Counted from the first letter of the stretch, positions 1 through 54,743 are shown. The stretch is DNA of 54,743 bases from a virus (IMGVR_UViG_3300032401_000014:1-54743), one strand, 5' to 3'. Numbers and translations: made by a program. Notes: generated by a model not told the origin, from the letters alone.

Positions 1-92
1 TTGTATAACTGACGAACGAATCATCATAGAACAAATTTCAATTTTTTCCTCTGGTGTCATTTCCCCTCCATTGCTTTTACTGTGGATTGCCA
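1..92. repeat. Terminal direct repeat (circularity); identical to 54591-54682
   Basis: ttgtataactgacgaacgaa...tgtggattgcca occurs at both ends, then the two copies diverge. Confidence 0.95.
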
Positions 93-254
93 CACCTTCC
101 ATAATTCACGCAATTTAGTTCCTTCATCTGGACATTGAAGTTCCCATATATATTCTTCTGCCGCCTTGCATCGCCGTTCATAATTATATAGTCTTTGCAA
201 CACATCTAAAATTGACATGTGGCCGTATATTTTATTTAATTCTGCTAATGTCAT
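57..254 (-). CDS. Small hypothetical cassette protein (RCKAAE / WQSTVKAME motifs)
   Basis: Start refined to MTLAEL (ATG 254) after GGAGGCGGGGAA RBS. Confidence 0.7.
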   Translation of the reverse strand: MTLAELNKIYGHMSILDVLQRLYNYERRCKAAEEYIWELQCPDEGTKLRELWKVWQSTVKAMEGK

Positions 255-405
255 TTCCCCGCCTCCACAATATTTTGCAACCGCAATGTGGGCAATAATC
301 ATATCCCTGATTTATGGGATAACCACATCCACCGCAATTATAGGGATTGCCCAATTCATGCTTATCATATTTTGGTAAAATTGTTTTGTCTCTCTTATCT
401 AACAT
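232..405 (-). CDS. Small zinc-ribbon protein (57 aa)
   Basis: Manual translation MLDKRDK...CGGCG...CPHCG; GGAGG RBS; below ORF-track cutoff. Confidence 0.7.
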   Translation of the reverse strand: MLDKRDKTILPKYDKHELGNPYNCGGCGYPINQGYDYCPHCGCKILWRRGNDISRIK

Positions 406-647
406 TTTTCCTCCATTGCTTTTACTGTGGATTGCCAGTTTATAAAATCTGCTCCCTCAAATCCTAAATCACTACCTTTGAAAACATTCTCTGCCGCCTT
501 GCATCTATTCTCCCATTGCAGACGGAGGGTGTGCTCGGCTTCGTAATCCATAATATCTTCAAAATTACCACAATCGCCCGGACACATGGCATCATCATAT
601 TTACACACGCAAGCGTGGATACAATCTGATCGTTCTGGTAATTTCAT
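399..647 (-). CDS. Cys-rich hypothetical cassette protein (RCKAAE / WQSTVKAME motifs)
   Basis: ORF track; GGGGGG RBS; shares two motifs with 57..254. Confidence 0.75.
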   Translation of the reverse strand: MKLPERSDCIHACVCKYDDAMCPGDCGNFEDIMDYEAEHTLRLQWENRCKAAENVFKGSDLGFEGADFINWQSTVKAMEEKC

Positions 648-673
648 ATTCCCCCCATGATTTTATTTATAGG
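645..673. repeat. 29-bp junction repeat R3; second copy at 2121-2149 (28/29 identical)
   Basis: catattcccc(c/t)catgattttatttatagg. Confidence 0.9.
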
Positions 674-1667
674 TTTCGTTCGGATTATCTATTGACATGG
701 TAAATTGGCAACATTCAGGCCAGCCCATTTGTAAACATTCGGCAACATCGACCAACTTTTGTTTGCCGCATATTCTACAAAAAACAATCCCAAGTTTTAA
801 CGATTCATGGCTATTTGCTATTTGATTATACATATTCCCCCCTTGATTCTTCTGCTCCAATGATAGTTTTGATCCAACAATAATACGATTGGCATATTCA
901 CGTTGAAATTTTCTCCATTCTCGTTTATCTTCTCGATCTTCGCCTCGATTATATAACATGGCCATTGGCATTAAACCCAACCTCAAAACTTGATGTAATC
1001 GTTTCTCAGCCTTTTCAAAAATGTCGCCCTTGTATCCGATCAAAACATAACATGAATAAATTCTATTGGTGTCTGTTAATGCCCCCGCCTCTCGTAACAT
1101 TTTACACGCCTCGATAAGTGGTTCATAATCGTCAAAAGTATCATAAGCGAAATAAACAGTTAATGGATTCAATTCCCTTAATCGTTCGGCGATCCATGGT
1201 TTCATTCTTTTTGCTTCCAGACCCCCGGTAAAACGTGGTCGAATCAGTTGTCGTTCCAACATTGTAAAAACTCGTTTAATATGATCCTCCGAACAAGCCA
1301 ATAAGTTAGAATCAAGTATATTATAACCGTTTTTAATTTCCAATTCTCGAATATTCCCCTCTCTTTTCGGCACTAAACAAAACCAACAATTATTGGGGCA
1401 TCCTCTCGATGTTATGATATAACCATACTTTAAGTATAAACCAGGTTCAAATTCATCACCCGGATCGTCATAAGCGGGGCCACCGATTGAAACCCTACTT
1501 GTCACTGATCGCCACGCCTCGGCAAGTTCCTCGCCTCGTTGCTTGTCCCATGTCCATGTCACTGATACCTTCACTTCGTCGGCCTCATCAAATAAATTTG
1601 GTTCAGTAAACCTTACATTTTCATCATCTGGTGTCGCCTTTGTTCGTCTGGGAAATACTCTAATCAA
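663..1667 (-). CDS. Radical SAM protein, fused in frame to a small Cys-rich ORF (663..833)
   Basis: TSRGCPNNCWFC (CxxxCxxC), DSNLL, YVLIGY; internal RBS plus ATG at 833. Confidence 0.85.
   Translation of the reverse strand: MIRVFPRRTKATPDDENVRFTEPNLFDEADEVKVSVTWTWDKQRGEELAEAWRSVTSRVSIGGPAYDDPGDEFEPGLYLKYGYIITSRGCPNNCWFCLVPKREGNIRELEIKNGYNILDSNLLACSEDHIKRVFTMLERQLIRPRFTGGLEAKRMKPWIAERLRELNPLTVYFAYDTFDDYEPLIEACKMLREAGALTDTNRIYSCYVLIGYKGDIFEKAEKRLHQVLRLGLMPMAMLYNRGEDREDKREWRKFQREYANRIIVGSKLSLEQKNQGGNMYNQIANSHESLKLGIVFCRICGKQKLVDVAECLQMGWPECCQFTMSIDNPNETYK
846..864. repeat. 19-bp cassette repeat R1 (ATTCTTCTGCTCCAATGAT); copies at 846, 1667, 2323, 3321
   Basis: Four identical copies read directly, all at gene boundaries. 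Confidence 0.95.
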
Positions 1668-1691
1668 TTCTTCTGCTCCAATGATTCTAAT

Positions 1692-1877
1692 TTATCCTTT
1701 TACAAATTTAGATGCCTCTTTCAAATATTTTGCCACCTTTTTTATCTGTTTACCCCCATCATGTAGATTCCATTTTATTCTTTCATGGTTAATCATTTGT
1801 GCCCAATCCACATGACAAACTTTTCCGTTTTTAATTCCTATGCGTATATAATAATCTGGTATAACTTGTTGTATCAT
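1692..1877 (-). CDS. Hypothetical protein
   Basis: ORF track; AAGGA RBS. Confidence 0.65.
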   Translation of the reverse strand: MIQQVIPDYYIRIGIKNGKVCHVDWAQMINHERIKWNLHDGGKQIKKVAKYLKEASKFVKG

Positions 1878-1889
1878 TCCAATTCCTTT

Positions 1890-2123
1890 TTATATTATTC
1901 CTCTAAACTTTCCATTTATTTTACCTCTTGTATTTTCTTTTGACTTATTAGCAGAGTTTCTACATCCACATTGAGGACATTCGAGACTTAAATCATCCGT
2001 GCCACGTGGATATACCGCCGTCCATTGATAAAAACAACGCATACACATAACCAAATCATTAACAACCCACTGCATTGGTTTTCTATTGGCAGGTAATATA
2101 ATTTTACGAAGTTCCCGCATCAT
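1890..2123 (-). CDS. Zinc-ribbon hypothetical protein
   Basis: CMRC...CPQC; start lies in repeat R3. Confidence 0.7.
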   Translation of the reverse strand: MMRELRKIILPANRKPMQWVVNDLVMCMRCFYQWTAVYPRGTDDLSLECPQCGCRNSANKSKENTRGKINGKFRGII

Positions 2124-2151
2124 ATTCCCCTCATGATTTTATTTATAGGAT

Positions 2152-2307
2152 TCAATTATCTCTGAAAAATCTAAAACCACTTGCGCCATGCAATAATCCG
2201 ATAGTAATAACAAAAAAAGGAAAGCCGATTGTTATCATATAATTTTCTAATTTAATATAAAATCCTATCTGAATTTCAAAATAAAATGCCAATCTATATT
2301 GTCCCAT
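2152..2307 (-). CDS. Small hydrophobic hypothetical protein (51 aa)
   Basis: Manual translation MGQYRLAFYFEIQIG...; GGGGGG RBS. Confidence 0.55.
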   Translation of the reverse strand: MGQYRLAFYFEIQIGFYIKLENYMITIGFPFFVITIGLLHGASGFRFFRDN

Positions 2308-2316
2308 ATTCCCCCC

Positions 2317-3321
2317 TTAAGTATTCTTCTGCTCCAATGATTCAAATAATTTCCCCTGTTCTTTCAGATACGCAATTCGTTTATTTGCTATATTTATATA
2401 TTTCTGATTTAATTCTATACCGATATATTTACGGTCAAGTTTCAATGCCACGAGTGCCGTAGTCCCTGCACCCATGAACGGGTCAAGAACTATCCCACCT
2501 TCGGGACATCCGGCTTTAATCATGGGTATTATTAGTTTTTCGGGGAAGGTAGCAAAGTGAGCACCCTTAAATGGATGGTTCGGCACTTCCCATACAGATC
2601 GCTTATTCCGAATCATGTTCCCTTCTTCGTCTTGTTGCCATCGTGCATGACCCCTTGCGTGAATAGTTTGAGCATTTGAAACAGGCGTAAACCCATCAGT
2701 ATATTTCATAGAACCTTTCATCCTTGTTGCTTTTCGCCCATCATAGCTTGCTGTTTCTTTTATCGCTTCATTATCAAAATAATATCTCGGTGATTTACTC
2801 AACAAGAAAACATACTCATGCGATTTCGTGCATCGGTCAGTCACGCTCTCCGGCATCGAGTTTAGTTTCGACCAAATAATGTCTTGCCGTAAATGCCAAC
2901 CATCAGCCTGTAATGCAAAGGCGACATGCCAGGGGATACCCACAAGGTCTTTCGATTTTATTACAGGATGAAACGGGTCTTTCTGCATGTTTTTCCCTGC
3001 CAGTGTTCCTTTGTTTGTTCCTTGCTTCGTTCCTTCGAGATCAGTCTTGCTTCCCTTCCATCCACCGCCATAATAACTATCACCAAGATTCAGCCACAGT
3101 GTCCCGTCATTTTTCAGCACCCGCTGGACTTCTCTGAATATCTCGACCAATTTCCCGACATATTCTTCCGGCGTTTTTTCAAGTCCAATCTGTCCTTCAA
3201 TTCCATAATCACGCAATCCCCAGTATGGCGGGGAAGTTACGCAACAATTAACCAACTCATTCGGTAGTGTTTTCAAAACGGTTAAACTATCGCTATGAAT
3301 GATTTGATTGAGTTCTATCAA
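2317..3321 (-). CDS. Site-specific DNA methyltransferase (N4C/N6A, beta class)
   Basis: TSPPYW (motif IV) precedes LDPFMGAGTT (motif I); HFATFP. Confidence 0.95.
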   Translation of the reverse strand: MIELNQIIHSDSLTVLKTLPNELVNCCVTSPPYWGLRDYGIEGQIGLEKTPEEYVGKLVEIFREVQRVLKNDGTLWLNLGDSYYGGGWKGSKTDLEGTKQGTNKGTLAGKNMQKDPFHPVIKSKDLVGIPWHVAFALQADGWHLRQDIIWSKLNSMPESVTDRCTKSHEYVFLLSKSPRYYFDNEAIKETASYDGRKATRMKGSMKYTDGFTPVSNAQTIHARGHARWQQDEEGNMIRNKRSVWEVPNHPFKGAHFATFPEKLIIPMIKAGCPEGGIVLDPFMGAGTTALVALKLDRKYIGIELNQKYINIANKRIAYLKEQGKLFESLEQKNT

Positions 3322-3338
3322 TTCTTCTGCTCCAATGA

Positions 3339-3938
3339 TTAAAATTTTCCACCTGCGGGCAATACTTTCCCGGCAGGGAACAATTCTCCAGCGTCCACGA
3401 CCATGCCCTCGTCACCGCCTTCTTCCTCAATCCCGAATCCCTTGTTGCGGTGATACTTTGCCTCCGGGCTCGTGATCGCCACCTGTAAATCAGTGAAAGC
3501 AAAATTCTCGACCTTCTTCACAAAGTCGATCGCTTCTCTGTCGGTAAGATTCGCCATCGACGGAATCCATCCGCAGGGCTCTCGCCTGGGCTTGCCGTCC
3601 TCCTGCCATGTGTTATACTCGATAATACACCTGTCTCTGTGCTTCTGCGGTATCTCTTCGAGAGCTGTTACAAAATTATAGAGAAACATCCGCTTGAGTT
3701 CTATGTGAGCCTTGAGCATATTTCCGTCGAACGCTTCAGCGGAAATCGGCGGCAGGAGATAGCCACGGTAATATTTATGCCGATGATACCTGATACCCTT
3801 GTCGTGGGTCTCAATACTGATCTCGCCATACATCCCGTCGTTCTCAGGAAGATTTTTAAACTTCGTAAGATTCTCAATGAACGCATCAAGATGTTTTATC
3901 TTTCCGCCTTTTATTCTTATGTTACCGATGATCTTCAT
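3339..3938 (-). CDS. NinB/Orf-like recombination-associated protein
   Basis: KYYRGY...AHIELKRMFL...SMANLTDREAIDFVKKVENFA pattern; position after the replication genes. Confidence 0.5.
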   Translation of the reverse strand: MKIIGNIRIKGGKIKHLDAFIENLTKFKNLPENDGMYGEISIETHDKGIRYHRHKYYRGYLLPPISAEAFDGNMLKAHIELKRMFLYNFVTALEEIPQKHRDRCIIEYNTWQEDGKPRREPCGWIPSMANLTDREAIDFVKKVENFAFTDLQVAITSPEAKYHRNKGFGIEEEGGDEGMVVDAGELFPAGKVLPAGGKF

Positions 3939-4542
3939 TCTTTGCCCATTCAGTCAGCTCTTTCTCCAGTAAGGGATATTTTATCCCTATTGTATCCATG
4001 AGCTTGCGAACTTCTTCCTTGTCCCCTATGATCTTTGTCTCGACCCCGATAAAATCAGGGCCGTACTCATCTCTGTAATACCCCTTGAGAAGTCTCGGCC
4101 TCACGTCCACGCCGAACTTCGTCGCATGGACATACCGATCTATAAAATCCTTGTGCACGACTTCCTGGTATTGGCCGTCACGCTCTTCGCAAAACTTCCG
4201 CCAGGTCACGAATCCGGCAACGACAAAGTGAGCCACTGGGTCAGCGATCAGCACATCAGGAGATACGCTCACGGTCATGAGGCTCTGCCACGCTTTCTCT
4301 GCTCGTATCTTCATCCATGAGCCGTGATGCTTCTCATGGACATTTACCATGATAGCCTTGTCGGGAAGCGTTTTCCACTTCTTCGAGTGGGCGTCTGTCA
4401 CCTTATGAAAAAATACTTCAAGCTGATCTGCTTTTATAACTCTGTTTAAAAATTCAATAATAACTTTTACTTCAAGCTGTGTGCTGTATTCCAGCTCATA
4501 ATACTCTTCGATCGCTGTTATAAATTCCTGTGCTGTATCCAT
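3922..4542 (-). CDS. Putative helicase loader/inhibitor (DUF6475-like)
   Basis: Directly after the initiator; LPDKA, AEKAW, DPVAHFVV..W..FC..KDFIDRY pattern. Confidence 0.55.
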   Translation of the reverse strand: MDTAQEFITAIEEYYELEYSTQLEVKVIIEFLNRVIKADQLEVFFHKVTDAHSKKWKTLPDKAIMVNVHEKHHGSWMKIRAEKAWQSLMTVSVSPDVLIADPVAHFVVAGFVTWRKFCEERDGQYQEVVHKDFIDRYVHATKFGVDVRPRLLKGYYRDEYGPDFIGVETKIIGDKEEVRKLMDTIGIKYPLLEKELTEWAKNEDHR

Positions 4543-4543
4543 A

Positions 4544-5293
4544 TTATCCTTCGGCTATTTTTCTGATCTCTTCGGCACGGGCCGCCCGGCTCTCAGGCGT
4601 GGGCTTCTTCTTGTTGTTGCCAGACGCCAGTATCGAGTCCACTCTTGATAAAATGCTTGATGCTGTTATGGGAGCATCGGCCCAAAATTCCTTTGTTGCT
4701 TTTTTCTTTATGTCTAAAAATTTATTCATCATTGCGAACAGCTCATCCCCGGTCTTGAATCTGTCGAGTAGCTTCCCGATGTTTTTTGCTTCCTTGCCGT
4801 CGTAATAATACGAGTCGTTATGGAGAGAAAAGAATTTCCGCATTTCAAGCCGGAAGAACGCCTTATCACTGTTAATATCATTGTCATTATAATCCGTTAA
4901 TATAAAGTCCTTATTGTGAGAGGTTTCCTCTCTCTCGGAGAGAGGTTTCTGCTCACCTGCGTGAGAGGTTTCCTCTCTCGACGTGAGAGGTTTCCTCTCA
5001 CCCGTGAGAACTTTCTGCTCACCTTTGCTGTGCATCCTTTCGACCTCGGCGTTCCATTTGTCGGTGGTTTCTATGCCTGTTTTGTGCCTGAGTATCAATC
5101 CTTTCCTCTCAAGATCGTTCAAAATATCCTGCACGCTCCGACGACTAACCCCGATGAAATCTCCCAGATATTGTTTTGCCGCCGTGCAATATTTCCCTCT
5201 CGATAAAAAATAAATGCTGTCGCAGATCGCATACTGATTTAAACTCAATTCGAGCTTTTTTCTGACATCGTGGTCGATCGTTGTATATGGCAT
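4544..5293 (-). CDS. Replication initiator (lambda O-like, N-terminal winged HTH)
   Basis: wHTH QYLGDFIGVSRRSVQDILNDLERKGLI; internal iterons; start refined to ATG 5293 after GGAGG. Confidence 0.8.
   Translation of the reverse strand: MPYTTIDHDVRKKLELSLNQYAICDSIYFLSRGKYCTAAKQYLGDFIGVSRRSVQDILNDLERKGLILRHKTGIETTDKWNAEVERMHSKGEQKVLTGERKPLTSREETSHAGEQKPLSEREETSHNKDFILTDYNDNDINSDKAFFRLEMRKFFSLHNDSYYYDGKEAKNIGKLLDRFKTGDELFAMMNKFLDIKKKATKEFWADAPITASSILSRVDSILASGNNKKKPTPESRAARAEEIRKIAEG
4916..5022. repeat. Replication origin iterons (5 x 19-bp imperfect palindromes)
   Basis: gtgagaggtttcctctcac-like units at 4916, 4938, 4961, 4983, 5004; adjacent AT-rich tract 4860-4915. Confidence 0.85.
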
Positions 5294-5310
5294 GAGACCT
5301 CCTTTTTTAC

Positions 5311-5475
5311 CCAAAAAAAACTCTGATCTTATAGCAACCAAACATCGAGTCCTCTCTGCGATCTTATCCTCGTTGACTTCTCTTCGTTCGGCCTCGGCCA
5401 GATGTGCTATAAAACCAGAGTCTTGCTTTTAAGGCAAGGGAGCTGGCCGAGAGAATCCTTTGACTTAAACTATAA
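5311..5475 (-). ncRNA. Structured leader RNA / putative attenuator upstream of the initiator
   Basis: Crossing complementary pairs 5443-5451/5393-5401 and 5405-5420/5321-5336; hairpin 5422-5438; U8 tract. Confidence 0.55.
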
Positions 5476-5480
5476 GACAT

Positions 5481-5509
5481 AAGATACTCTCGACCGTCCT
5501 TTTTGTCAA
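5481..5509 (-). promoter_or_regulatory. Sigma70-type promoter for the replication operon
   Basis: TTGACA-17 nt-TATCTT. Confidence 0.75.
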
Positions 5510-5511
5510 TA

Positions 5512-5706
5512 CTAAAACGCTTCTTTTTCCTCTTTTTTATTTTCCTTTTTCTCGTACTCGGCAAATACCATATTGTAGTCAGGATGTTTGTCTTCTTTCT
5601 TCATCTCATTTTTAAAGACCATGACCTTGACGCCGCCGAGCCTGCCGAGAAGATAGTCCTTGCCTTCCTTCGACGTTACCTTCCAGAGACCACAAGCGTT
5701 TATCAT
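5512..5706 (-). CDS. DUF736-like small protein (possible ssDNA-binding)
   Basis: GLWK.TSKEGKDYL.G...VFKN..K...HPDY pattern. Confidence 0.6.
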   Translation of the reverse strand: MINACGLWKVTSKEGKDYLLGRLGGVKVMVFKNEMKKEDKHPDYNMVFAEYEKKENKKEEKEAF

Positions 5707-5954
5707 TTCTTCTCTCCCTCCTGCCGCTTCAAAAGATCAGCCATGAGCCTGTCCATTGCAGAACCTTTTGAAAGGCTATCATTCATAACCTCCCGCCTCC
5801 GAATCTTATCGAGAGCTTCAGTCAACATCCCGATTATCTCGTGACTGTAAAGACCATTGACGCTGACAATCAAAAAAACCCCGTTTTTCTCAGCCAAGAG
5901 TTCAAGAGTGATAAGCCTTCTCCTTTCATTTTTTTTCTGTGATTTACTCTTCAT
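5703..5954 (-). CDS. Hypothetical protein
   Basis: ORF track; GGAG RBS. Confidence 0.65.
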   Translation of the reverse strand: MKSKSQKKNERRRLITLELLAEKNGVFLIVSVNGLYSHEIIGMLTEALDKIRRREVMNDSLSKGSAMDRLMADLLKRQEGEKK

Positions 5955-6123
5955 CTTTTAACTCCTCCTTTTCTATTCCATCTTTTTTCAAAATTTCATT
6001 GCCCGCTCGTGCTAATATGCCGAGCATTTCAATGTCTGAGAACCCGTTTCCCGCAACCACCAATTTCAAGCTCGATGAATCTCCCTCTTTTATCACTTGT
6101 GCCCGTAGTGAAAACTCTTTCAT
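5944..6123 (-). CDS. Hypothetical protein (59 aa), resembles 5703..5954
   Basis: Manual translation MKEFSLRAQV...NGFSDIEMLGIL; GGAGG RBS. Confidence 0.65.
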   Translation of the reverse strand: MKEFSLRAQVIKEGDSSSLKLVVAGNGFSDIEMLGILARAGNEILKKDGIEKEELKDEE

Positions 6124-6359: not shown

Positions 6360-6586
6360 CTCGCCTCCTTCTCACTTAAAAATTGTATCGCCCTGCCACT
6401 GCCCCGGCCTGCCTGCTTGATATAGCCCTTCTGAGCACATAGCCGCAGAATCGACTCGACAGCTCCCTTCGATATTCCAAAAGCCTCGCCGATCTCTGCC
6501 TGCGACGGCTGATACTTTCTTGTAGCCGTGAAGTTTTTAATATAATCCAGCACGGCCAACTGCTTCTCTGTTAGTTTTTTTCTCAT
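6356..6586 (-). CDS. LexA-type DNA-binding-domain repressor (no peptidase domain)
   Basis: LTEKQLAVLDYIK...PSQAEIGEAFGISKGAV...KGYI; start refined to 6586. Confidence 0.8.
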   Translation of the reverse strand: MRKKLTEKQLAVLDYIKNFTATRKYQPSQAEIGEAFGISKGAVESILRLCAQKGYIKQAGRGSGRAIQFLSEKEAR

Positions 6587-7164
6587 GTTACCTCCTTCTT
6601 TTTCCGTGATATAAAATCCTTGATGGCCTGCTCTGCCTTGTATTTGCTGAGACATGCCAAAAAAGTAACGTCGGCATCCTTGTCGAAAACGTCCACCGAT
6701 TTGAACTTCCTGCCGTCGTACCAGAGCACAAGCCACTGATTTGTTCTTTTGATAATTTTATTCTCTATCGCCAGCCTATGATACCCGGCGAACTGCACCG
6801 GAGTATAGAGATATGCGGGCTTCGATCTTTTAAAGTCAATAATAGCCTTTTCACATATCAAGTCTGGCACTCCAGCATACATGTGTTTCCGTGACCATAA
6901 CGGCCGCTCGCTCTGAATCACATGCCCAGTCTCAGGATGCTCGTCGAACCACCGATCGAGAGCTATCAACATCGGATTCTCTCCAGGGTCATGAACATCG
7001 AAATACATCTGTATCAAATTGTGAGAATCCTTACCCTCTTGCCTCAAACGCTCCAGATGCTCCGGTGAGACAAAGAACTGCTTCGCCGGGAGTACATGGG
7101 TGACAGATGGAACCCGAACATCGTCAATAAAAAATTCATGCTTCTCTCTGTCAAAAATCAACAT
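6583..7164 (-). CDS. PD-(D/E)XK exonuclease (recombination partner of ERF)
   Basis: PSVTHVL, E, YAGVPDL, IIDFK, QFAGY; start refined to MLIFDREKHEF. Confidence 0.8.
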   Translation of the reverse strand: MLIFDREKHEFFIDDVRVPSVTHVLPAKQFFVSPEHLERLRQEGKDSHNLIQMYFDVHDPGENPMLIALDRWFDEHPETGHVIQSERPLWSRKHMYAGVPDLICEKAIIDFKRSKPAYLYTPVQFAGYHRLAIENKIIKRTNQWLVLWYDGRKFKSVDVFDKDADVTFLACLSKYKAEQAIKDFISRKKKEVT

Positions 7165-7978
7165 TTTTCCTCCCCTCGACCGCCTTGTCGATTGCCGCCT
7201 TGATCTTCTCATTGTCCCATTTACGATCTTTGCAAAATTGGAACGACGTGCTCTCATTGTAATTGAGAAGTTTAAACCCCTTCTGAATATACTCAGGCAA
7301 TTCTTTAAGCATCTTCTCGGCCTCGGCGAACTGTTTCTTTTTCTCTTCGTCTTCGATCTGGTTAGCGTCATTGTCCTCTCCGCTGACAACAATACCGAGA
7401 GCGTTCCTGATTGCATACCGTGACGCAAACGTCATGGCACTCGCCCATTTCTGCGGCTCGGTCATGAAGGCATCCTCCTGCACTCTGGCGGTAAAGGTAG
7501 ATTCTTCATAATGTCCCAGAATATGAGACACCTTCGCCACTACTTTCACTGCCGATGGCTCGTCAATAATGAGCGTGTCGAATTTATATAACAGGTCATG
7601 CTTCGACAAAAGTGGCTGAACGACCTTCATTATATCCTCGATCGCTGAAAACTTATATCGGGTTTTCGATTTGTCGTTTTTTTCAGGAACCCTTCTCCCT
7701 TTCGGAATGATCGGGCACTCTCCTTGAAACTTAGCCAATGCCGACCGATACGCTTGCTCAGCCTTCTCTTTCTGGAGCCGTTCTCTAAGATTGAATAAAC
7801 GCTCCAGTGTCTCCACGTTCCCGCCCTGCTTGATAGTCTCCATCATCATCTGCTCTGGAGTCACATCAACAGGAACCGAAACACTCCACTGGCCCGGAGC
7901 AACTGGATACTCAGGCTTGTGTACGATTCTTTTAACTGATTTTTTTTTATCTTTCACGTCTTGCCTCCTCTCTTTCAA
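7151..7978 (-). CDS. erf: ERF-family single-strand annealing protein
   Basis: YKFSAIEDI; PQKWASAMTFASRYAIRNALGIVVSGEDNDA. Confidence 0.85.
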   Translation of the reverse strand: MKERRQDVKDKKKSVKRIVHKPEYPVAPGQWSVSVPVDVTPEQMMMETIKQGGNVETLERLFNLRERLQKEKAEQAYRSALAKFQGECPIIPKGRRVPEKNDKSKTRYKFSAIEDIMKVVQPLLSKHDLLYKFDTLIIDEPSAVKVVAKVSHILGHYEESTFTARVQEDAFMTEPQKWASAMTFASRYAIRNALGIVVSGEDNDANQIEDEEKKKQFAEAEKMLKELPEYIQKGFKLLNYNESTSFQFCKDRKWDNEKIKAAIDKAVEGRKNVDF

Positions 7979-14769: not shown

Positions 14770-16614
14770 TTAGAAATTCTTATTGATGTCTGCGTAATAA
14801 ACGCCATTCGCATACACAAGCGTTACGATGTCGGCTTTATACGGCGTCGTCGTCAACGTCGGAGCTGAACCGCCAGCCCACGAAATAGTCGGCCACGTCG
14901 TTATCGTCTTTGAACCGCCTGAATCTTGAATGATAATAAAACGGTAAACTCCACCGACGACCGGATTGGCCATCGTTACGGTACGCCCTGTTGAACCGAG
15001 TGTTACATACTGCGTGTTTCCGTTGTTCCAGTCGATTGCAATAGTAGTGCTGTCGGTGAGCTGGTATTGACCGTAAACTCCTTTACCTTGCGGGCCGGGT
15101 ATCGGCCAGCCGTCGTCGCCTTTGTCTCCTTCGTCGCCGGGAATCGTAATGCCCACGCCTTGCGGCCCCTGCGGGCCAGTCAATCCACGAGGGCCGGGCA
15201 GTGGGTAGCCATCTTCACCCGTATCACCCGTATCACCCGGAATCGTTATTCCATACGGCCCCTGAATCCCCTGCGGGCCAGTCTGTCCCCTGTTCCCCGG
15301 TATCGGCATCCCGTCCTCGCCTGTGTCGCCTTGCTCTCCCGGAGTTCCCGGCGTTCCAGTTGTTCCCTGCGGCCCCTGCCGACCTTGTACGCCGGGCAGT
15401 GGATAGCCGTCCTCTCCGTCATCTCCTGCATCTCCAGTCATTCCTTGAAAACCACGCAAACCACGCTCGCCTTGTATTCCCTGTGGGCCGGGTAAAGGAT
15501 AGCCGTCCTCGCCAGTATCGCCAGTATCGCCAGTCGTCCCCGGAGTTCCCTGAGCCCCTTGAGCCCCAGTTCTTCCTTGAACACCGGGAAGTGACCACGC
15601 ATCATCTCCAGATTCTCCCTGATCTCCCGGAACGAAAGATACTCCCGGAGCTCCCTGTGGGCCTTGCCGTCCCTGTGGGCCGGGGATAGGCCAACCATCT
15701 TCGCCCGTGTCTCCCGTGTCTCCTGTTGTTCCCGGAGTTCCCTGAACGCCCTGTGTCCCTGTCACTCCACGAGCACCGGGTATCGGCATCCCATCTTCAC
15801 CCTGATCGCCCTGTTCGCCCTGTATCCCAAGTCCAGCCGCTCCTCGGTCGCCAGTATATCCACGAGGCCCTTGTATCGTCCAGCCGTCATCGCCTTGATC
15901 TCCAGCTTCTCCCGGAGTCCCCGGAGTCCCTGAACTTCCTTGAACACCCTGCCGCCCCTGAACACCCGGAATCGGATAGCCGTCATCGCCCGAATCTCCC
16001 TGATCTCCCTGTATCCCTATCCCCGGAGTCCCTTGTAATCCTCTCTGCCCCTGTGAGCCTTGAATAGTCCATCCGTCCTCACCAGCTTCACCAGAATCTC
16101 CGGGAGTTCCGGGGACTCCGGAACTTCCCTGAGCACCTTGTTGACCTCTCGGCCCCGGTATCGGGTATCCATCTTCACCTTGATCGCCCTGATCTCCTTG
16201 TATGCCTAAACCAGCAGGCCCTTGCAATCCCTGAGCACCTCTCAGCCCTGGTATCGGTATCCCATCATCACCAGTATCTCCGATCTCTCCGGGTATTCCT
16301 ATGCCGGGAACTCCCTGTATTCCACGAGCACCCGGAGGGCCAACGATATGACCATCCTCGCCAGTCTCTCCTTGTTCTCCGGGAACGAAAGAAACTCCGG
16401 GAGCACCCTGCGAACCCGTGAGTCCCGTCAAACCACGTGGGCCGGGAACATTGCTGTCGTCGCCCTGATCTCCCTGTTCACCGGGAACACCACGGCCTTG
16501 AGCACCCTGAGCACCTGGAGGGCCTTGCACTGCCGATACAGAGAGACTGATCGGATTGACAGGATTCAGCTCGATCGAGATGCTGTTGATCGTTACTATA
16601 ATTGGCATATTCAT
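14770..16614 (-). CDS. Collagen-like (Gly-X-Y) tail fibre with C-terminal beta domain
   Basis: About 500 aa of interrupted GXY; C-terminal IAIDWNNGNTQYVTL...IIQDSGGSKTITTWPT; start refined to 16614. Confidence 0.9.
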   Translation of the reverse strand: MNMPIIVTINSISIELNPVNPISLSVSAVQGPPGAQGAQGRGVPGEQGDQGDDSNVPGPRGLTGLTGSQGAPGVSFVPGEQGETGEDGHIVGPPGARGIQGVPGIGIPGEIGDTGDDGIPIPGLRGAQGLQGPAGLGIQGDQGDQGEDGYPIPGPRGQQGAQGSSGVPGTPGDSGEAGEDGWTIQGSQGQRGLQGTPGIGIQGDQGDSGDDGYPIPGVQGRQGVQGSSGTPGTPGEAGDQGDDGWTIQGPRGYTGDRGAAGLGIQGEQGDQGEDGMPIPGARGVTGTQGVQGTPGTTGDTGDTGEDGWPIPGPQGRQGPQGAPGVSFVPGDQGESGDDAWSLPGVQGRTGAQGAQGTPGTTGDTGDTGEDGYPLPGPQGIQGERGLRGFQGMTGDAGDDGEDGYPLPGVQGRQGPQGTTGTPGTPGEQGDTGEDGMPIPGNRGQTGPQGIQGPYGITIPGDTGDTGEDGYPLPGPRGLTGPQGPQGVGITIPGDEGDKGDDGWPIPGPQGKGVYGQYQLTDSTTIAIDWNNGNTQYVTLGSTGRTVTMANPVVGGVYRFIIIQDSGGSKTITTWPTISWAGGSAPTLTTTPYKADIVTLVYANGVYYADINKNF

Positions 16615-16931
16615 CGCTGTATCACCTTGAAAGTCCCAGCTATCAACGTGCGATATGATTGAACTCCGGCCCAGGCCAGATACCATTTATAATTTATCTT
16701 GAGCAACTCGGCAGTATCGAGAGCTGAAAGGCTGAGATTGATTTTTCCGAGAGGAAGGCTCACTGTATCCACGGTGAACGATTGAACATCTTCGCCCTCG
16801 TATGTTATCGCCCCCGTAAAATCAATTCCAGTAATATCGAACCCGAACGTGACCAGCATAGAAACAACGTCACCTGCAATCATTGAGATGTCCAAGACGG
16901 CAGGCAAAACATTGTACTGTTGATTGCTCAT
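16611..16931 (-). CDS. Fibre attachment/adaptor protein (BppU N-like)
   Basis: LDI.M.AGD...GKINLSLS...TLIAGTFKV. Confidence 0.6.
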   Translation of the reverse strand: MSNQQYNVLPAVLDISMIAGDVVSMLVTFGFDITGIDFTGAITYEGEDVQSFTVDTVSLPLGKINLSLSALDTAELLKINYKWYLAWAGVQSYRTLIAGTFKVIQR

Positions 16932-26372: not shown

Positions 26373-28196
26373 TTATGATCTCAGCATCAGGCCAACGCCG
26401 ATTTTAATACTGCCCGCCGGAGCAGGAAACGTAAACCAGCAATCCTCGTTCCGGTTGCCGGAATCGACCGATGCTTGCGGATTGTTTATAAGATCAGCCC
26501 TGACAAAAAAGTGATCTGTCGGCTGTGTGTATGTCCCGTCGTCGTTGATAGACTGCCCGAAAGTTTCCCCTGCGGCCACGCTTCCCGTCGAGCCAGCTTC
26601 CCAGAGGCGATAAAAGAAATTCCAGATCGCCGATGCAGAGTTCTTTATCCTCGCCCAGTTATTCGGCTCGTTGTGCGTTCCAAGCAACGAATTGACGATC
26701 GAGATTTTGATATAATCTCGCATCAGGATACCGTTCCCGAACATGAACTCTTTCGTGACCGACGGTGTGAACCATGACTTCACTATGTACCCGTCCCCGG
26801 TCTGGAAGATCGTCGTGTTGATGCCAGCTTCGGCGAGATCAGTGCGATCTTCAGCGGATGAGAACTGAGTCCCGACGACCCCCTGTATTCCAAAAATCGG
26901 AGTGTTCACCGTGGCTGGAACCCAGTGGATTCCGTATGTCCCGATACAGCGAATCCATGCTCCCATCGTGTGACCAACGCTCGGTATCGTCCGCAACGGA
27001 GCCAGCGGGGAAGTAGTGAACGGGTCTGGAACCTGATACCATTTTTCCTGTATCACGCCCAGCACGTCATCTGCTCTCTGGTAGTTGTTCCCGATCGTGA
27101 TGAGTTGTGTCTTGCTCTGATTTGACGGCACATTGTAGATGATCTTCGGCTCGTCCCATCTGCCCCTTGAATAAACTTCGAGAGCCAACTGCGTCGCAGT
27201 GTCGGTCGTTTCGCAGTTCGTTAGAAACCTGATCGGCAAAGAGTCGAACGTGGCATTGTTGATGCCCCAGTGGGCTGAAGTCGTCGGGGCCGTCCCGTCC
27301 GCTCCGCTGGTGAGGTACACTGCCGTTGAAACTGCGACAGGCTGATCGAGACCAACACCCGACCCTGAATTTAGATTCGTGACCTGTGCCCATTTTGAGT
27401 TCATGAACACGTTCACGACATAGAAGTCTGTGACTTCAGGGGCCATCGTGCAATATATTTTTCCGAGATCGGTGTCCACTTCGGCGAGAACTCCGAGAAG
27501 AGATTTCCTCCAGAGATGAAGCTGGAATCCCATAATCCCGGCAAAGTCTCCGACCTTCGCATAGCTGGAAGCATGAATCGCTCCTGAGAAATAGAGCCTC
27601 CCGGTCGATGCGTCTATTGACGTTATCTTTTTATATACGGTGACGGCAGAGCCTCCGGTGATGTTCATTTTTAGCTCATCCCCGATCTTCGCTCCGGCGA
27701 CGCTGTAAACCGCAATCCAGTTGTCCGTAGCCGAACCCTGAAAAGAGCATGTCGTCGAGAATCTGAAGCCAGGAACGATCGTGTATGCCGTATTATTCCC
27801 CCACGCTGAAAACTCAGGGATGTTCATGTATGCAGAGTCGAGTCTGATCGTCGGATTTGACGCATCCAGAATCAACGTCCCTGATGTTGCCTGCACTCCA
27901 TCGTACGCCGAGCCTGTATAGCCGACATGCGACTTGACATAGAGCTTCGCATCAACGCCTCTCGTGTTGTCGAAAAATCCTTTTGCACAATCCCAGCCGT
28001 AAAAGGTAGGCGTGACCTGCACATCGAAAATATCTGCCATCTCCTCCGTGTTTCTGCATTGAAAGGGAACTTTATATCTTCTCTGAAACAGCCCGATGAG
28101 TCCTCCGATCAGCATGTCAGAAGGATTTACTGAAACCGTTTTTTTTGTCGGCAGAGAAGTCCCATATACGTCTTGAGTCCTTAGTCGATTTCCCAT
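26373..28196 (-). CDS. Tail sheath protein
   Basis: GFFDN, LTSGADG, IPSVGH..G, AGINT, EPN, F.VRAD..NNP. Confidence 0.9.
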   Translation of the reverse strand: MGNRLRTQDVYGTSLPTKKTVSVNPSDMLIGGLIGLFQRRYKVPFQCRNTEEMADIFDVQVTPTFYGWDCAKGFFDNTRGVDAKLYVKSHVGYTGSAYDGVQATSGTLILDASNPTIRLDSAYMNIPEFSAWGNNTAYTIVPGFRFSTTCSFQGSATDNWIAVYSVAGAKIGDELKMNITGGSAVTVYKKITSIDASTGRLYFSGAIHASSYAKVGDFAGIMGFQLHLWRKSLLGVLAEVDTDLGKIYCTMAPEVTDFYVVNVFMNSKWAQVTNLNSGSGVGLDQPVAVSTAVYLTSGADGTAPTTSAHWGINNATFDSLPIRFLTNCETTDTATQLALEVYSRGRWDEPKIIYNVPSNQSKTQLITIGNNYQRADDVLGVIQEKWYQVPDPFTTSPLAPLRTIPSVGHTMGAWIRCIGTYGIHWVPATVNTPIFGIQGVVGTQFSSAEDRTDLAEAGINTTIFQTGDGYIVKSWFTPSVTKEFMFGNGILMRDYIKISIVNSLLGTHNEPNNWARIKNSASAIWNFFYRLWEAGSTGSVAAGETFGQSINDDGTYTQPTDHFFVRADLINNPQASVDSGNRNEDCWFTFPAPAGSIKIGVGLMLRS

Positions 28197-35409: not shown

Positions 35410-35691
35410 TCAAATCTCCTTTTCGTACATAAAAATAAATCCTTTCGACTTCAAAATATCACTCTCTCGCTCATCCGTTACCGTGATGACTCCATCCATG
35501 ATTTCATGGTCGGTTATCTTTCCTTCAAGCTCGATCTTATAAATGCCATTGTATCGTGAACCATTCAACGGAATCTCAGGATATAAGAGTCGATATTCTT
35601 TAGTCGGTTTTTTAATAACGGGGGGCGGCTGACTTACTACGACAACCGCCTCCTGTTTTACTTCTTCGTTGAAACGAATGACGTTTATCAC
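35410..35691 (-). CDS. Hypothetical head-associated protein
   Basis: ORF track. Confidence 0.65.
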   Translation of the reverse strand: MINVIRFNEEVKQEAVVVVSQPPPVIKKPTKEYRLLYPEIPLNGSRYNGIYKIELEGKITDHEIMDGVITVTDERESDILKSKGFIFMYEKEI

Positions 35692-37118
35692 GCCACCCTC
35701 ATTCCTCTGAGAATACTCGAAGTCGCCTCGTATGAAGGAGCGACTGCGGCATAGCTCTTTATCAAGAACGGCAGGAAGTCGTCTGTCCTTGCCAAGTCCT
35801 CGATCGTGACAAGCCCGTTGAACTGCGAACCGCCCTGATTGGTATATGGCAATCTTCCAAGACCTTGAAACTCATCAAAGTCGATGAAGAAAATATACTC
35901 AGGTGCGTACGTCGCTGTAATCACCAACGGCAAGTCTGCCTGCATCGCTGTCGGAATCGTGGTCGGTGTCCATGATGTGAATGTGCAGGTATTGACCACG
36001 CTTGAAGCGTTCGACGTACAGGTCAACGTGGTATTGATCGTATTGGTCGTCGAGGCCGCTATCGTTCCGTTTGCATCATACGCATAACCAGGAACGACGG
36101 CGATAAGAACTTCAGAGCCGCTTGTGACACTGAAATAAACCTTGTATCTGAACGCATCGGCGATCGGAGTCCACGTCAGCGTGAAGGTCGATGTACTGGA
36201 GCCTGTGGTTGCTAAGTTTGAAGTCTCTGCACTCGCCAGTGACTCGCCGTCCTTTGTTACAGCCGACACTCTGAAGTAGTTCGTCGCACTGTTCGCTATC
36301 GTCCCGCCAGTAGTTGCGGTGGACGGTGTTACCGTTCCCATTGTAATCTTCGGGCGACAAAACGATGACATGATGATCGGTATATCCCGATACGCATTGA
36401 GCCGCCAGCCGCCGTTGATGTCCACTTGCGACATGCTCCCGGTGAGACCTTGATTCAATCTCACGTTGGAGAGCAGGGCTGAATACTTCGAGAGCATCTG
36501 CGGAGACATAATGAACGCCTTGTTGTGAGCCGCACCTTGCTTTTCAAAGTTAGCATCTATCATCGTGTCCAGATCGGTAAAATTCGTCGGTGCGACACCG
36601 CCAAGAGCTTTATTCGTTCGATAGGTCGTGACGTAGGTATCGAACCCCGTGAACTCATACTGATTGCTCGATGCGTTCCCGAAGGCGATATAATTTTCCA
36701 TGTCATAGACGTGGGCCAAAAGCTCGGATTCCATATTGGCGGCCGCCGCATCTATGTTCTTTTTACTTGCGTCTTGCAGAAAGTTCGTGGTTGCTCCTTT
36801 CCTTCTGATGACTTTCAGAGAAACGTTCGCCCGTGTGTAAACAGGCTGAGTAGTCGGAGTCACCGCACCTTCACCCATCGCCCCGCCGGATGCCGGGAGC
36901 GAAGTTAATTGATCGAACTCGTGCAACTTCTGATTGTCGAACTTCGGTGTCATCATTGCCACCAGAGGCGATAATCTCGGCACGGCGTTCGTAATGACCT
37001 GCTCCAAGTGTTGTGGTATGAGTGCTTCACCACTTCCTGTTGCGGCGGTCAATGCTTTCTGTATGAGGCTCTTGTTCTCGCCCCAGTACCAGTTAAATTG
37101 TTTGATAATGTCTGCCAT
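35688..37118 (-). CDS. Major capsid protein with FN3/Ig-like insertion
   Basis: KALT..GSGEALIPQHLE, EGA, FGN, FTGFD; inserted YFRVSAV...GES...LTW...YKVY. Confidence 0.9.
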   Translation of the reverse strand: MADIIKQFNWYWGENKSLIQKALTAATGSGEALIPQHLEQVITNAVPRLSPLVAMMTPKFDNQKLHEFDQLTSLPASGGAMGEGAVTPTTQPVYTRANVSLKVIRRKGATTNFLQDASKKNIDAAAANMESELLAHVYDMENYIAFGNASSNQYEFTGFDTYVTTYRTNKALGGVAPTNFTDLDTMIDANFEKQGAAHNKAFIMSPQMLSKYSALLSNVRLNQGLTGSMSQVDINGGWRLNAYRDIPIIMSSFCRPKITMGTVTPSTATTGGTIANSATNYFRVSAVTKDGESLASAETSNLATTGSSTSTFTLTWTPIADAFRYKVYFSVTSGSEVLIAVVPGYAYDANGTIAASTTNTINTTLTCTSNASSVVNTCTFTSWTPTTIPTAMQADLPLVITATYAPEYIFFIDFDEFQGLGRLPYTNQGGSQFNGLVTIEDLARTDDFLPFLIKSYAAVAPSYEATSSILRGMRVA

Positions 37119-39824: not shown

Positions 39825-40083
39825 TACCCACCTCGTATGATACAATCTCGTCAGTATCCGGGTCTCTCCTCCATAGAGTTCCATCCTGACGTTTCCATGT
39901 GTCGCCCGGTTTATGAATAGACCGCTCAAGTATTTCAATGGCTTTTTTTACAATTTTTTCTTGTTCAATTTCTTTTTTAAATTCCGCAAGAGCCTCGTCG
40001 AGTGCTTCCTCCTCCCAGTCTGCCAATTCACCATTGACAAACCCACAAGTCCCGCCTCCGTCTGGATGCCAACTATTTTTCAT
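39805..40083 (-). CDS. Small acidic protein with KA site and Trp-hairpin motif
   Basis: ATGA-coupled to the large gene; GGAGGG RBS. Confidence 0.7.
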   Translation of the reverse strand: MKNSWHPDGGGTCGFVNGELADWEEEALDEALAEFKKEIEQEKIVKKAIEILERSIHKPGDTWKRQDGTLWRRDPDTDEIVSYEVGIGKNTP

Positions 40084-47265: not shown

Positions 47266-48585
47266 TTATGCCGCACGCTTCATGGCCTGAATGAATCCGC
47301 CCAGAGAATCCGGTGCGTCGTTACGCTTCGCATACTCGCTGTATTTCACGATCTGCGTCACGTACTCACGGGTATCAGGGTCAACAAGCAGACCGTTGTT
47401 GAAATAAATACTGTTCCAGTTCTTCTTCGCATAGTGCACAATTCTGAAGTGCTTATTCTTATACTGCTGAACGCCTCTCACGACCAGTCCTCGCTTTTCC
47501 ATCTCGTAGCCGACGGCAACCTGGGCGGCGTTGTACTCGATATTGAGCACTCTGACGTTGTAGCCCTTGCAGTAGAACTCGACTCTATCATACGTCTTGT
47601 CGATCTGTCCGTACCAAGCGTAGCCTGCCGCAACGTAATACTTCCCGCCACTGAACCCACCGATCGTCAGTGCGTTTGAATCCTCTCCTCCGAACGCTGG
47701 GTCGAGATATGCCACGAGCACCAGGTCGTCCGGAACGTCAATGTATTTGATGTCAGGGAATATCCGCTCGGTAACGTCGATCGGGTTTTGTTGATAGAGA
47801 GCCTCCCAAATCTTGAGAGTCGTCCCGCTTTTTATCGACATGAGTTCTTCGAGTGAGTATCGTTCAGGCCAGAGCGGTTGATTATTCTCATCTACTGCCG
47901 GAAGCGTAAGCACGTCCCAGATACCAGGCTCGTGCATGAGAAGTTTGCCCGTCAGGTCGTCCTCACCCCACCGAGTCTGAATTATTACTATGGCGGCGTT
48001 CGGGTGCAACCGTGTCCTGAGTGTCGAGCAATACCAGTCCCAAATCTTCTCTTGAATCGTGGTTGACATCGCCTCTTCCCAGTTCTTCACCGGGTCATCA
48101 ATGATCGCAAGGTCAGCTCCCCTGCCAGTGATCGCACCGCCAACGCCAGCACCCACGCCCACGCCTCCTTGCACTGTCTCCCAGCGGTTAGCGGCTTTAA
48201 TGTCGTCCTTGAGCTGAACGTCAAAAACCCGCTGGTATAGCGGGTCTTGAACTATATTACGAATCCACCGGGTAAAGTCGATGGCAAGCGTATCTGCGTA
48301 GGATGTTATTATAATCTGCGAGCTGGGCCTGTTGCCGAGGAACCATGAAGGAAATAGTTTCGAGGCAAGCCAACTCTTGCCGTGTCGTGGCGGCTCGTTG
48401 ATTATCAGCCGCTTTATCTTTCCATCATACACCTGCTGGAGCTTCTCTGCAATCTGCTTGATGTGTTTCGGTGTCTGGAACTCTGGATTGATAACTTTTG
48501 CGTAAGTGAGAAGATCGAGCCTGCTCGCCTGAACCAGAAATAGACGACGTGCGGCTTCCATCTGTTCGTTACTCAACGCCTGCAA
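47266..48585 (-). CDS. terL: Terminase large subunit
   Basis: PPRHGKS (Walker A), IIDDP (Walker B), QTRW, YQQNP, DPA, NDAPD. Confidence 0.95.
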   Translation of the reverse strand: MQALSNEQMEAARRLFLVQASRLDLLTYAKVINPEFQTPKHIKQIAEKLQQVYDGKIKRLIINEPPRHGKSWLASKLFPSWFLGNRPSSQIIITSYADTLAIDFTRWIRNIVQDPLYQRVFDVQLKDDIKAANRWETVQGGVGVGAGVGGAITGRGADLAIIDDPVKNWEEAMSTTIQEKIWDWYCSTLRTRLHPNAAIVIIQTRWGEDDLTGKLLMHEPGIWDVLTLPAVDENNQPLWPERYSLEELMSIKSGTTLKIWEALYQQNPIDVTERIFPDIKYIDVPDDLVLVAYLDPAFGGEDSNALTIGGFSGGKYYVAAGYAWYGQIDKTYDRVEFYCKGYNVRVLNIEYNAAQVAVGYEMEKRGLVVRGVQQYKNKHFRIVHYAKKNWNSIYFNNGLLVDPDTREYVTQIVKYSEYAKRNDAPDSLGGFIQAMKRAA

Positions 48586-50809: not shown

Positions 50810-50813
50810 TTTA

Positions 50814-52357: not shown

Positions 52358-52363
52358 GGCCTC

Positions 52364-54650: not shown

Positions 54651-54654
54651 TTCC

Positions 54655-54743
54655 CCTCCATTGCTTTTACTGTGGATTGCCAGTTTATAAAATCTGCTCC
54701 CTCAAATCCTAAATCACTACCTTTGAAAACATTCTCTGCCGCC
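54655..54743. repeat. 89-bp copy of 410-498
   Basis: Direct reading. Confidence 0.95.

Follow-up and report, generated by a model that had tools for sequence, protein, structure and literature searches.

The virus record IMGVR_UViG_3300032401_000014, which we analysed over its full length of 54,743 bases (hereafter the window), comes from an uncultured phage of sediment and contains four exact copies of a 19-nucleotide (nt) sequence, R19. These copies bracket two enzyme genes, one for a DNA methyltransferase and one for a radical SAM enzyme. On balance, we lean towards reading R19 as a translation-signal linker that serves as a short-homology recombination junction for the exchange of single open reading frames (ORFs). 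The repeat lies exactly at the boundaries of its cargo, other families of repeated junctions lie in the same block, natural variants break at such junctions, and neither a dedicated recombinase nor an att-like structure was found in the window. An earlier note on this DNA had proposed att-like single-gene cassettes that enter and leave a fixed site, integron-like in logic; gene shuffling at short shared linkers, an established route of phage evolution, fits better than a new integron-like machine.

As the earlier note had reported, ATTCTTCTGCTCCAATGAT occurs at 846-864, 1667-1685, 2323-2341, and 3321-3339. All four matches are exact and lie on the plus strand; the expectation by chance is 0.03, and four copies were reached in none of 100 shuffles. 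With up to three mismatches allowed, no further match was found in the record. At four to six mismatches, the plus strand gave 12 matches (the four exact copies included) against a shuffle mean of 9.2. Because no degenerate copy rose above this noise, we rejected the idea that decayed copies of R19 lie at other junctions.

All recognisable genes of the window are carried on the minus strand, and on this coding strand R19 reads ATCATTGGAGCAGAAGAAT. Taken in the order in which this strand is read, copies a (3321-3339) and c (1667-1685) stand upstream of the two enzyme genes. In both, GGAG, a ribosome-binding site (RBS), lies 8 nt ahead of a TTG codon, and that TTG takes its first base from the final T of the repeat; the stretch common to the two copies extends into TTGAT and measures 24 nt. 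Copy a follows the stop codon of a gene of 199 amino acids (aa) and gives the GGAG, the 8-nt spacer and the T of the methyltransferase TTG, and copy c likewise gives the RBS and the T of the radical SAM start. The downstream copies, b (2323-2341) and d (846-864), both encode SLEQKN at the C-termini of the enzymes. Copy b ends the methyltransferase 15 nt ahead of the ATG of a 51-aa ORF; in copy d, SLEQKN is followed by CAA and no stop, and the frame continues into a 56-aa ORF.

There is no inverted repeat at or beside any of the R19 copies, and none of them forms a hairpin: single-stranded DNA folds of 71-81 nt round the four copies reached only -1.2 to -2.7 kcal/mol (z against shuffles, -0.02 to +1.72). 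The 23 promoter-like sites of 1-5600 all lie clear of the copies, none of seven terminator-like sites is located at a copy, and R19 gave no match in Rfam. Given no match, site or stable fold, R19 was rejected as an RNA family, promoter, terminator or hairpin.

The first bracketed gene (2317-3321, minus strand) encodes an N6/N4 DNA methyltransferase of 334 aa, with a TTG start and the end LFE-SLEQKNT. It matches phrog_67 and PF01555 (1e-52; 179.7 bits against a cut-off of 26.7) across profile positions 1-221 of 221, and T29, S30, P31, P32, and Y33 of its SPPY motif are invariant in the homologue alignment. The closest homologues, at 63-65% identity, have the same start residue and variable tails. 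In this family the protein end varies within a few residues of an LF motif; here LFE is followed directly by SLEQKNT.

The body of the second enzyme (865-1667, minus strand) contains the sequence CPNNCWFC and matches phrog_9298 (3.5e-20). Its PF04055 score of 25.4 bits is below the cut-off of 29.5; close homologues carry a precomputed PF04055 match, and the cysteines of the radical SAM CxxxCxxC motif (C90, C94, and C97) are invariant in the alignment. The homologues, up to 77% identical and 272-290 aa in length, are conserved to ...REYANRIIVGSKL (IIVGSKL), beyond which they have unrelated tails of ~6-20 residues. Copy d starts in the last base of the conserved Leu codon with which IIVGSKL ends.

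In both genes the TTG is the first possible start and aligns with the N-termini of the homologues (MxELNKIY and M(KL)IRVFPRKT). We therefore take both TTGs to be real starts, which bears out the proposal that the upstream copy supplies the GGAG and runs into the start codon. Family similarity begins, in each enzyme, at the codon after TTG. Since similarity ends within a few bases of the downstream copy and the tails of the homologues vary, R19 belongs to the site rather than to the cargo. The two enzyme genes lie between the repeats as had been described, and the downstream copy does encode SLEQKN in both proteins. One correction is needed: the radical SAM frame runs past SLEQKN to a total of 334 aa (663-1667), a length that the public gene call also gives. 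At 843-845 on the minus strand it has CAA in place of the stop of the sister junction and is fused to the 56-aa ORF; a co-occurring variant junction, described below, has TAA at this position.

A second radical SAM gene is present at 49022-50005. It matches phrog_9298 over its full length (4.5e-88) and is 28% identical to the bracketed gene. In other phages, such as those of the IMG/VR loci L014 and L016, the radical SAM gene comes after a VRR-NUC gene and a gene like one of 94 aa, a place that is held here by the paralogue at 49022-50005; thus, the bracketed copy is extra and ectopic.

The block has at least three repeated gene-junction sequences, of which R19 is one, and R19 forms no hairpin; the notion of a special att-like site was not sustained. 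Two segments, 3339-2120 and 1685-645, have the same layout: R19, an enzyme gene, R19 with GGGGGGAATATG, a small ORF, a junction that we call B2, and an ORF of 77 or 82 aa. In the first segment, junction B1 (copy 1, 2305-2322) provides a stop, the AAGGGGGG RBS, and the ATG of the 51-aa ORF (2152-2307), which is hydrophobic with a guanine-cytosine (GC) content of 0.27 and is unrelated to the 56-aa ORF at the matching place in the second segment. B2 (copy 1, 2120-2153) reads CCTATAAATAAAATCATGAGGGGAATATG on the minus strand, and its two copies are 94% identical over 34 nt. It lies ahead of a zinc-ribbon-like 77-aa ORF (1890-2123) for which the protein collection returned the self-match only. A 61-aa ORF (1692-1877), with its stop 6 nt ahead of copy c, completes the interval. 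The second segment has copy 2 of B1 (831-845), with the AAGGGGGG RBS and the ATG of the Cys-rich 56-aa ORF (663-833), which this record has as an in-frame fusion with the radical SAM ORF, followed by copy 2 of B2 (644-677) ahead of an 82-aa ORF (399-647) ending in WQSTVKAMEEKC. All of these features are on the minus strand, as is junction C (403-437 and 58-92), which has the form ...CAATCCACAGTAAAAGCAATGGAGG..AAATG and contains the tail WQSTVKAME, a GGAGG RBS, and an overlapping start. Its two copies, 94% identical over 35 nt, end the 82-aa and 81-aa ORFs and together bracket a 57-aa and the 81-aa ORF, and the junction recurs near 54,500.

Aligned from copy b to the 77-aa start and from copy d to the 82-aa start, the two segments agree at their ends only, in R19 then AAGGGGGGAATATG at one end and in CCTATAAATAAAATCATG(A/G)GGGGAATATG at the other. 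By BLASTP their interiors are unrelated: the 51-aa and 56-aa ORFs gave no alignment, and the 77-aa and 82-aa ORFs gave E = 1.5. For this reason, we rejected tandem duplication of one module followed by divergence. Among the start regions of 85 minus-strand ORFs (3570 pairs), shared words of at least 18 nt were found only within 647-3321. Repeated junctions therefore stand between unrelated ORFs (R19 four times, B1 and B2 four times in all, and junction C two to three times), and we conclude that the block is an array of ORFs separated by a few reused translation-start junctions.

Natural variants of this array were observed in four sediment runs, X1 to X4, as assembled Logan contigs and not as reads. 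X1 is probably the source sample and is not independent; five further runs (X5-X9) held only small shares of the window words. X1 holds all sampled words of 1-6000, and its contig of 52,785 nt, made by a second assembler, extends from 1898 over the remainder of the genome as far as base 92 with zero differences; therefore, the methyltransferase gene with copies a and b is present in it. Another X1 contig, of 429 nt (410-838), has a depth of 24.5, close to what the main contig (16) and a variant path (9.5) give when added. The sample thus holds at least two genotypes that share 410-838.

The variant path, found in X1 and X3, joins 838 to 1910 through 24 letters, consisting of R19 with one C-to-T change and then TAA in the SLEQKN frame. 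On the coding strand, a single repeat here links some other gene to the 56-aa ORF. The loose ends, at 1927 in X1 and 1923 in X3, continue into sequence unlike the window and probably lie on the same contigs as the 838/1910 joint. In contigs from X2, X3, and X4, agreement with the window stops at exactly 864, where copy d has its outer edge, and 80, 30, and 115 unlike letters follow. Likewise, an X3 contig matches 2109-2343 with zero differences and breaks 2 nt past copy b into 117 unlike letters. We conclude that the region is hyperplastic and that its breakpoints are often, although not always, on junction repeats. The region ~1001-1600 has no contig in any run, and X1 depth over 201-400 is near zero; we counted neither as evidence. 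Within the 81-aa ORF, the first 10 nt of R19 recur at 152-161, and contigs from X2, X3, and X4 all start matching at base 153, which may reflect another breakpoint or a coincidence.

The end of the record carries a further variant. Here (54591-54743, 153 bases), bases 1-92 are repeated exactly and are followed by 438-498, with repeat matches of 100% and 98%. The join of 92 to 438 falls inside the 35-nt junction C and corresponds to a 345-nt presence/absence variant (93-437) that contains the 57-aa and 81-aa ORFs. IMG/VR lists the record as a whole virus with a completeness rating of 100% and the class linear. From the repeat at its end we conclude that the genome is circular or circularly permuted at ~54,590 bases, despite the linear class, and that the assembler caught a second path at the join of the record.

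These observations can be accommodated by a model in which the linker would be a short, unstructured translation-initiation sequence that is reused at gene boundaries of a hyperplastic, AT-rich block. Unrelated ORFs would be grafted between linkers, with the upstream copy providing their RBS and TTG and the downstream copy a tail of six residues. Such linkers would then be patches of identity at which co-infecting relatives, or two places in one genome, recombine, and genes could be gained, lost or swapped singly while the translation of their neighbours stays intact. If copies a and b, c and d, a and c, or b and d were to collapse into one, an intact start region would in each case remain ahead of the next ORF. 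Because the junctions are themselves the start regions, every such product would keep its translation signals; the claim that these signals survive any repeat-by-repeat deletion is borne out by the coordinates. Recombination at the 19-mer itself probably made the arrangement and could presumably unmake it.

The agent would most likely be the phage's own annealase and exonuclease, acting by general short-homology recombination, and host recombination is possible as well. The pair named by the earlier note is indeed present. An Erf-like single-strand annealing protein (7151-7978, minus strand; phrog_155, 3.2e-31) is the candidate recombination engine and adjoins an exonuclease ORF (listed as 6583-7428, minus strand; phrog_298, 2.9e-12). 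The exonuclease family match covers residues 85-279 of the listed ORF, so its true start is probably near the Erf stop. The Erf/Exo pair of phage D3 has been shown to match lambda Red in recombining diverged substrates (PMC3945230). We infer that Erf performs the exchange at the linkers. The absence of an integrase was confirmed: in six frames of all 54,743 nt, PF00589 (tyrosine recombinase) gave no match at E <= 0.01, with every control genome matched, and PF00239 (serine recombinase) likewise gave none.

No full relative genome was found, and GenBank phages matched the conserved core of the methyltransferase only. For the 199-aa gene upstream of copy a, a close-relative scan gave no IMG/VR relative; relatives in a representative library are at most 47% identical, and the four inspected have other C-terminal tails, so they leave the origin of the 19-mer unexplained. 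Junction B2, the junction C patterns, and the 24-letter variant junction had no match in IMG/VR.

The radical SAM gene was found in nine IMG/VR loci, of which seven are distinct. In L016, where it is 70% identical, a 24-nt exact direct repeat, AAACAGGAGATACTTATATGAGCA (5896-5919 and 6805-6828), brackets a 28-aa ORF together with the radical SAM gene. This repeat encodes the tail KQEILI of both the upstream VRR-NUC protein and the radical SAM protein, each followed by a stop, and in addition provides an RBS and an overlapping ATG; an HNH endonuclease gene comes directly after the cassette, and the 24-mer was found in that contig alone. In L014, an exact repeat of at least 99 nt (5201-5299 and 6841-6939, the second copy being the contig end of a record rated 66% complete) brackets an AT-rich, apparently degraded C5-methyltransferase-like ORF and the radical SAM gene. 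That a methyltransferase is again paired with a radical SAM gene may hint at a functional link. L015 and L017 have only RBS-like common words of 12-18 nt in the flanks of the gene, and the remaining loci have none. The flank thus differs from phage to phage and is therefore local sequence, not an attachment site that travels with the cargo. That the same radical SAM cargo is bracketed in L016 by a different, local 24-nt repeat speaks against an attachment site borne by the cargo.

In a scan of other loci, 8 of 767 distinct ORFs (89 loci) were bracketed by an exact word of at least 15 nt, and none in a reversed control. The corresponding figure for non-self pairs was 14 of 4374 (odds ratio 3.3, one-sided p = 0.011). 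Five of the eight bracketing words are start regions (L015, L037, two in L082, and L099). This suggests that ORFs bracketed by duplicated start regions recur at a rate of ~1%, approximately threefold the non-self background. The small ORFs at L015 (1966-1983 / 2293-2310), L037 (6281-6457), and L082 (2993-3374) have exact start regions of 16-24 nt, with RBS, spacer and ATG, on both sides.

The linkers belong to an accessory block of small ORFs and nucleases that runs from 3339 down to base 1 and across the record ends to ~52,000, between the replication-recombination genes and the packaging genes. As had been stated, it is richer in AT: GC content is 0.38-0.39 in 1-3000 and 0.42-0.43 in 52001-54000, against mostly 0.43-0.52 elsewhere. 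Gene by gene, GC falls exactly from the first repeat copy, with 0.48 in the 199-aa gene, 0.42 in the methyltransferase gene, and 0.27-0.36 in the small ORFs. The AT-rich block also encodes an HNH endonuclease with an AP2-like C-terminus (52627-53193), an endonuclease VII-like protein (53955-54230), and the VRR-NUC protein (50456-50857), any of which could make breaks that feed recombination. The record has no tRNA genes, and we rejected a tRNA-linked integration site on that ground.

Other recognisable genes of the minus strand encode the terminase large subunit (47266-48585), portal (45631-47202), major head protein (35688-37118), tail sheath (26373-28196), collagen-like tail fibre (14770-16686), and a replication initiator with internal iterons (4544-5341). 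Within the tail fibre gene, a 45-nt unit is repeated 11 times with a period of ~96 nt, and GC rises to 0.61, the genome maximum. Within the replication-initiator gene, a unit of ~19 nt occurs five times at 4916-5024, spaced 21-23 nt; these repeats look like origin iterons of the kind associated with lambda O-type initiators. Between the portal and head genes, 40080-45008 contains an ORF of 1642 aa with only two PHROG matches, both weak and of unknown function.

The main rival of the linker model is that the repeats are a by-product of insertion, the local target having been duplicated by template switching during recombination-dependent replication or by the repair of a staggered break. We regard this as possible, with a distinctly smaller share of our confidence. 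It would explain why the radical SAM cargo is bracketed by different local repeats (19 nt here, 24 nt in L016, and at least 99 nt in L014), why the upstream copy in L016 is the 3' end of the VRR-NUC gene, and why the four R19 copies are identical with none decayed, as expected of a recent duplication; the variable repeat length suits template switching better than a fixed enzyme stagger. However, the same 19-mer surrounds two different cargoes at places separated by three other ORFs, and the small ORFs, which are not duplicated targets of one insertion, also have shared junctions on either side. The one-letter variant of R19 at an uninterrupted junction in the co-occurring genotype indicates, moreover, that the 19-mer pre-exists as a junction, and the L014 structure is less certain, for the reasons given above. 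A regulatory role is less likely, and we consider it doubtful. R19 would then be an mRNA operator (a site for a translational repressor, a nuclease or coupling) that co-regulates both enzymes and two small ORFs, the mosaic breakpoints being incidental. All four copies do lie within 35 nt upstream of a start codon, the two enzyme genes share their 24-nt start region with its rare TTG, and the region folds less readily than shuffled controls, a tendency of start regions in general. The small ORFs, however, have their own GGGGGG site 12-15 nt beyond the downstream copies, and an operator leaves unexplained both why enzyme similarity stops exactly at the repeat and why related contigs diverge at the repeat edge; no RNA family matched, and we identified no candidate RNA-binding regulator.

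Two further possibilities would give the 19-mer a more specialised part. In a purpose-built, plug-and-play extension of the linker model, which we think improbable, Erf or a nuclease of the block would prefer the linkers and would capture and release whole ORFs precisely, start codon through C-terminus, possibly via circles with a single linker. Less likely again, and in our judgment very improbable, is a dedicated site-specific cassette system in which a phage enzyme recognises the 19-mer, with the HNH-AP2 endonuclease (52627-53193), the endonuclease VII-like protein, and the VRR-NUC protein as candidates. The AT-rich block does hold several nucleases, the radical SAM cassette of L016 has an HNH endonuclease gene directly behind it, and the repeat copies are exact. 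Nevertheless, tyrosine and serine recombinases are absent, neither a palindrome nor a hairpin occurs in the repeat, and the HNH gene here does not adjoin a copy, the nearest being ~2.2 kb away when counted over the record ends. In addition, other junction repeats of different sequence behave alike, and the flanking repeat differs between phages with the same cargo. Finally, the arrangement could be a chimera, formed where an assembler switched at short repeats from one co-occurring genotype to another, but we see scarcely any likelihood of this. At least two genotypes share 410-838 (depth 24.5 versus 16 and 9.5), the record end has an alternative path, and 865-1897 has no covering Logan contig among those examined. 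Against such an artefact, the 52,785-nt contig of the second assembler holds the methyltransferase gene and both of its repeat copies with no difference, a contig of 54,731 nt, which is another assembly length, is the recorded source of the fused 334-aa radical SAM protein, and X1 holds all sampled words of 1-6000. A repeat of 19 nt is also shorter than the word sizes usual in final assembly.

Several observations weigh against the linker model itself. Nineteen identical bases are short even for annealases, and the perfect identity of the four copies would suit a recent by-product of insertion as well as a substrate of recombination. The expectation that the 19-mer would flank other cargo in related phages was disappointed: R19 had no match in IMG/VR, and relatives of both enzymes in other phages lack it. 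Eight single matches in metagenome contigs gave alignments of 20-52 nt only and nothing by tblastx; three single matches in prokaryote genomes were of the same kind, and all of these are consistent with chance. Bracketing by repeats is not a trait of the methyltransferase family, an idea that we rejected because a flanking repeat of at least 15 nt was present at 0 of 60 evaluable loci, where the longest common word was 13 nt (80 loci were fetched, and 20 were dropped as duplicates, too near the locus end, or without a start or stop). The rate of bracketed ORFs in the wider scan is also low.

The variants, too, tell in part against the linker model. The idea of swappable single-gene cassettes gains from the exact cargo boundaries and from the contig breaks at the repeat edge; a precise R19-by-R19 excision junction or a circle was not seen, in assembled contigs only and not in reads, and for three of the four runs the contigs examined were ~68-72% of the whole, with a filter that drops records. 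As for alternative junctions, the one-letter variant of R19 with a different upstream neighbour was found in two runs, but it is no simple excision product, as its linker differs and its upstream neighbour has only 18 nt in common with the window. A contig from X2 joins 802 to 1894 through 3 nt of microhomology, with the repeat, the radical SAM gene, and the 61-aa ORF gone, and therefore illegitimate events also shape the block. Beyond 864, the diverging contigs could hold a diverged allele of the radical SAM gene instead of other cargo.

Among known arrangements, the closest that we found is the promoter-early stem-loop (PeSL) cassette of T4-type phages, of which R19 might be regarded as a translational analogue, as it might of the lambdoid or mycobacteriophage boundary sequences discussed below. 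In Arbiol et al. 2010 (PMC2839356), conserved PeSL elements flank ORFans in hyperplastic regions with no integrase. Differences between phi1 and RB49 map to these elements, and mini-circles were detected experimentally. An ORF is proposed to be lost or gained when its two flanking copies recombine, and the paper itself draws the parallels with integrons and with the linker concept of Botstein. Both systems have short conserved elements that flank single non-essential ORFs and carry expression signals, without an integrase. They differ in that a PeSL is ~100 bp long, with a sigma-70-like promoter and a terminator stem-loop, whereas R19 is 19-24 nt, unstructured, and has neither. R19 also carries translation signals and overlaps coding sequence, so that cargo is grafted in frame at the start codon and the C-terminus. 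Without promoter and stem-loop terminator, R19 would thus work like a PeSL without being one.

Short linkers at mosaic junctions have also been described as Susskind-Botstein linkers and as lambdoid boundary sequences, as cited in PMC3029335 and PMC2839356. Gene 68 of mycobacteriophage Island3 is an inserted ORF in which the C-terminal 18 residues, and ~50 bp of DNA, are a repeat of the C-terminus of gene 67, which lies upstream. The event was read as recombination between short boundary repeats, with presence or absence between two phages, and as the first such case in mycobacteriophages (PMC3029335). The shared C-terminal tail together with a downstream start is the geometry of SLEQKN here and of KQEILI in L016. 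R19 is shorter, is exact, occurs four times round two enzymes, includes the RBS and start, and has other junction families alongside; our evidence comes from metagenome contigs and not from pairs of isolated phages. As at boundary sequences, unrelated neighbours share sequence here, and breakpoints coincide with it (864, 2343, 838/1910, and 92/438), with 802/1894 as the counter-example. Morons, a term of Hendrix and colleagues, have their own promoter and terminator, and their conserved flanks are not thought to move them (PMC2839356). The enzyme genes here resemble morons, so described, in being extra AT-rich accessory genes between phage genes; they differ in having no promoter or terminator, the same orientation as their neighbours, and identical flanks.

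The likeness to integrons is looser. Integron cassettes move by recombination of attC with attI through IntI, and attC sites are imperfect inverted repeats that fold as hairpins. The array described here shares with them promoterless single ORFs, repeated boundary sites, and expression signals that come from the platform. It differs in that we found no IntI or tyrosine recombinase, no folded imperfect palindrome, and no attI or Pc, and in that its repeats are located within coding sequence and provide signals for translation instead of a recombination-site structure. In a literature search that was not exhaustive, we found no published description of start-region linkers used as they appear to be here.

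Whether phages exchange modules by blind illegitimate recombination followed by selection, or whether exchange is channelled by short conserved linkers, is a long-standing question. Documented linker cases are few; among those we read about, they are the PeSLs, the lambdoid boundary sequences, and the single mycobacteriophage example. If the plug-and-play extension were true, the system would be an integrase-free, translational counterpart of integrons, perhaps widespread in uncultured phages. The present record adds a compact case at the level of single ORFs, in which the linker would be the translation-initiation region itself, cargo would be swapped in frame, and neighbours would keep their RBS. 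Several sediment samples hold natural variants with breakpoints on the linkers, which makes the linker question directly testable.

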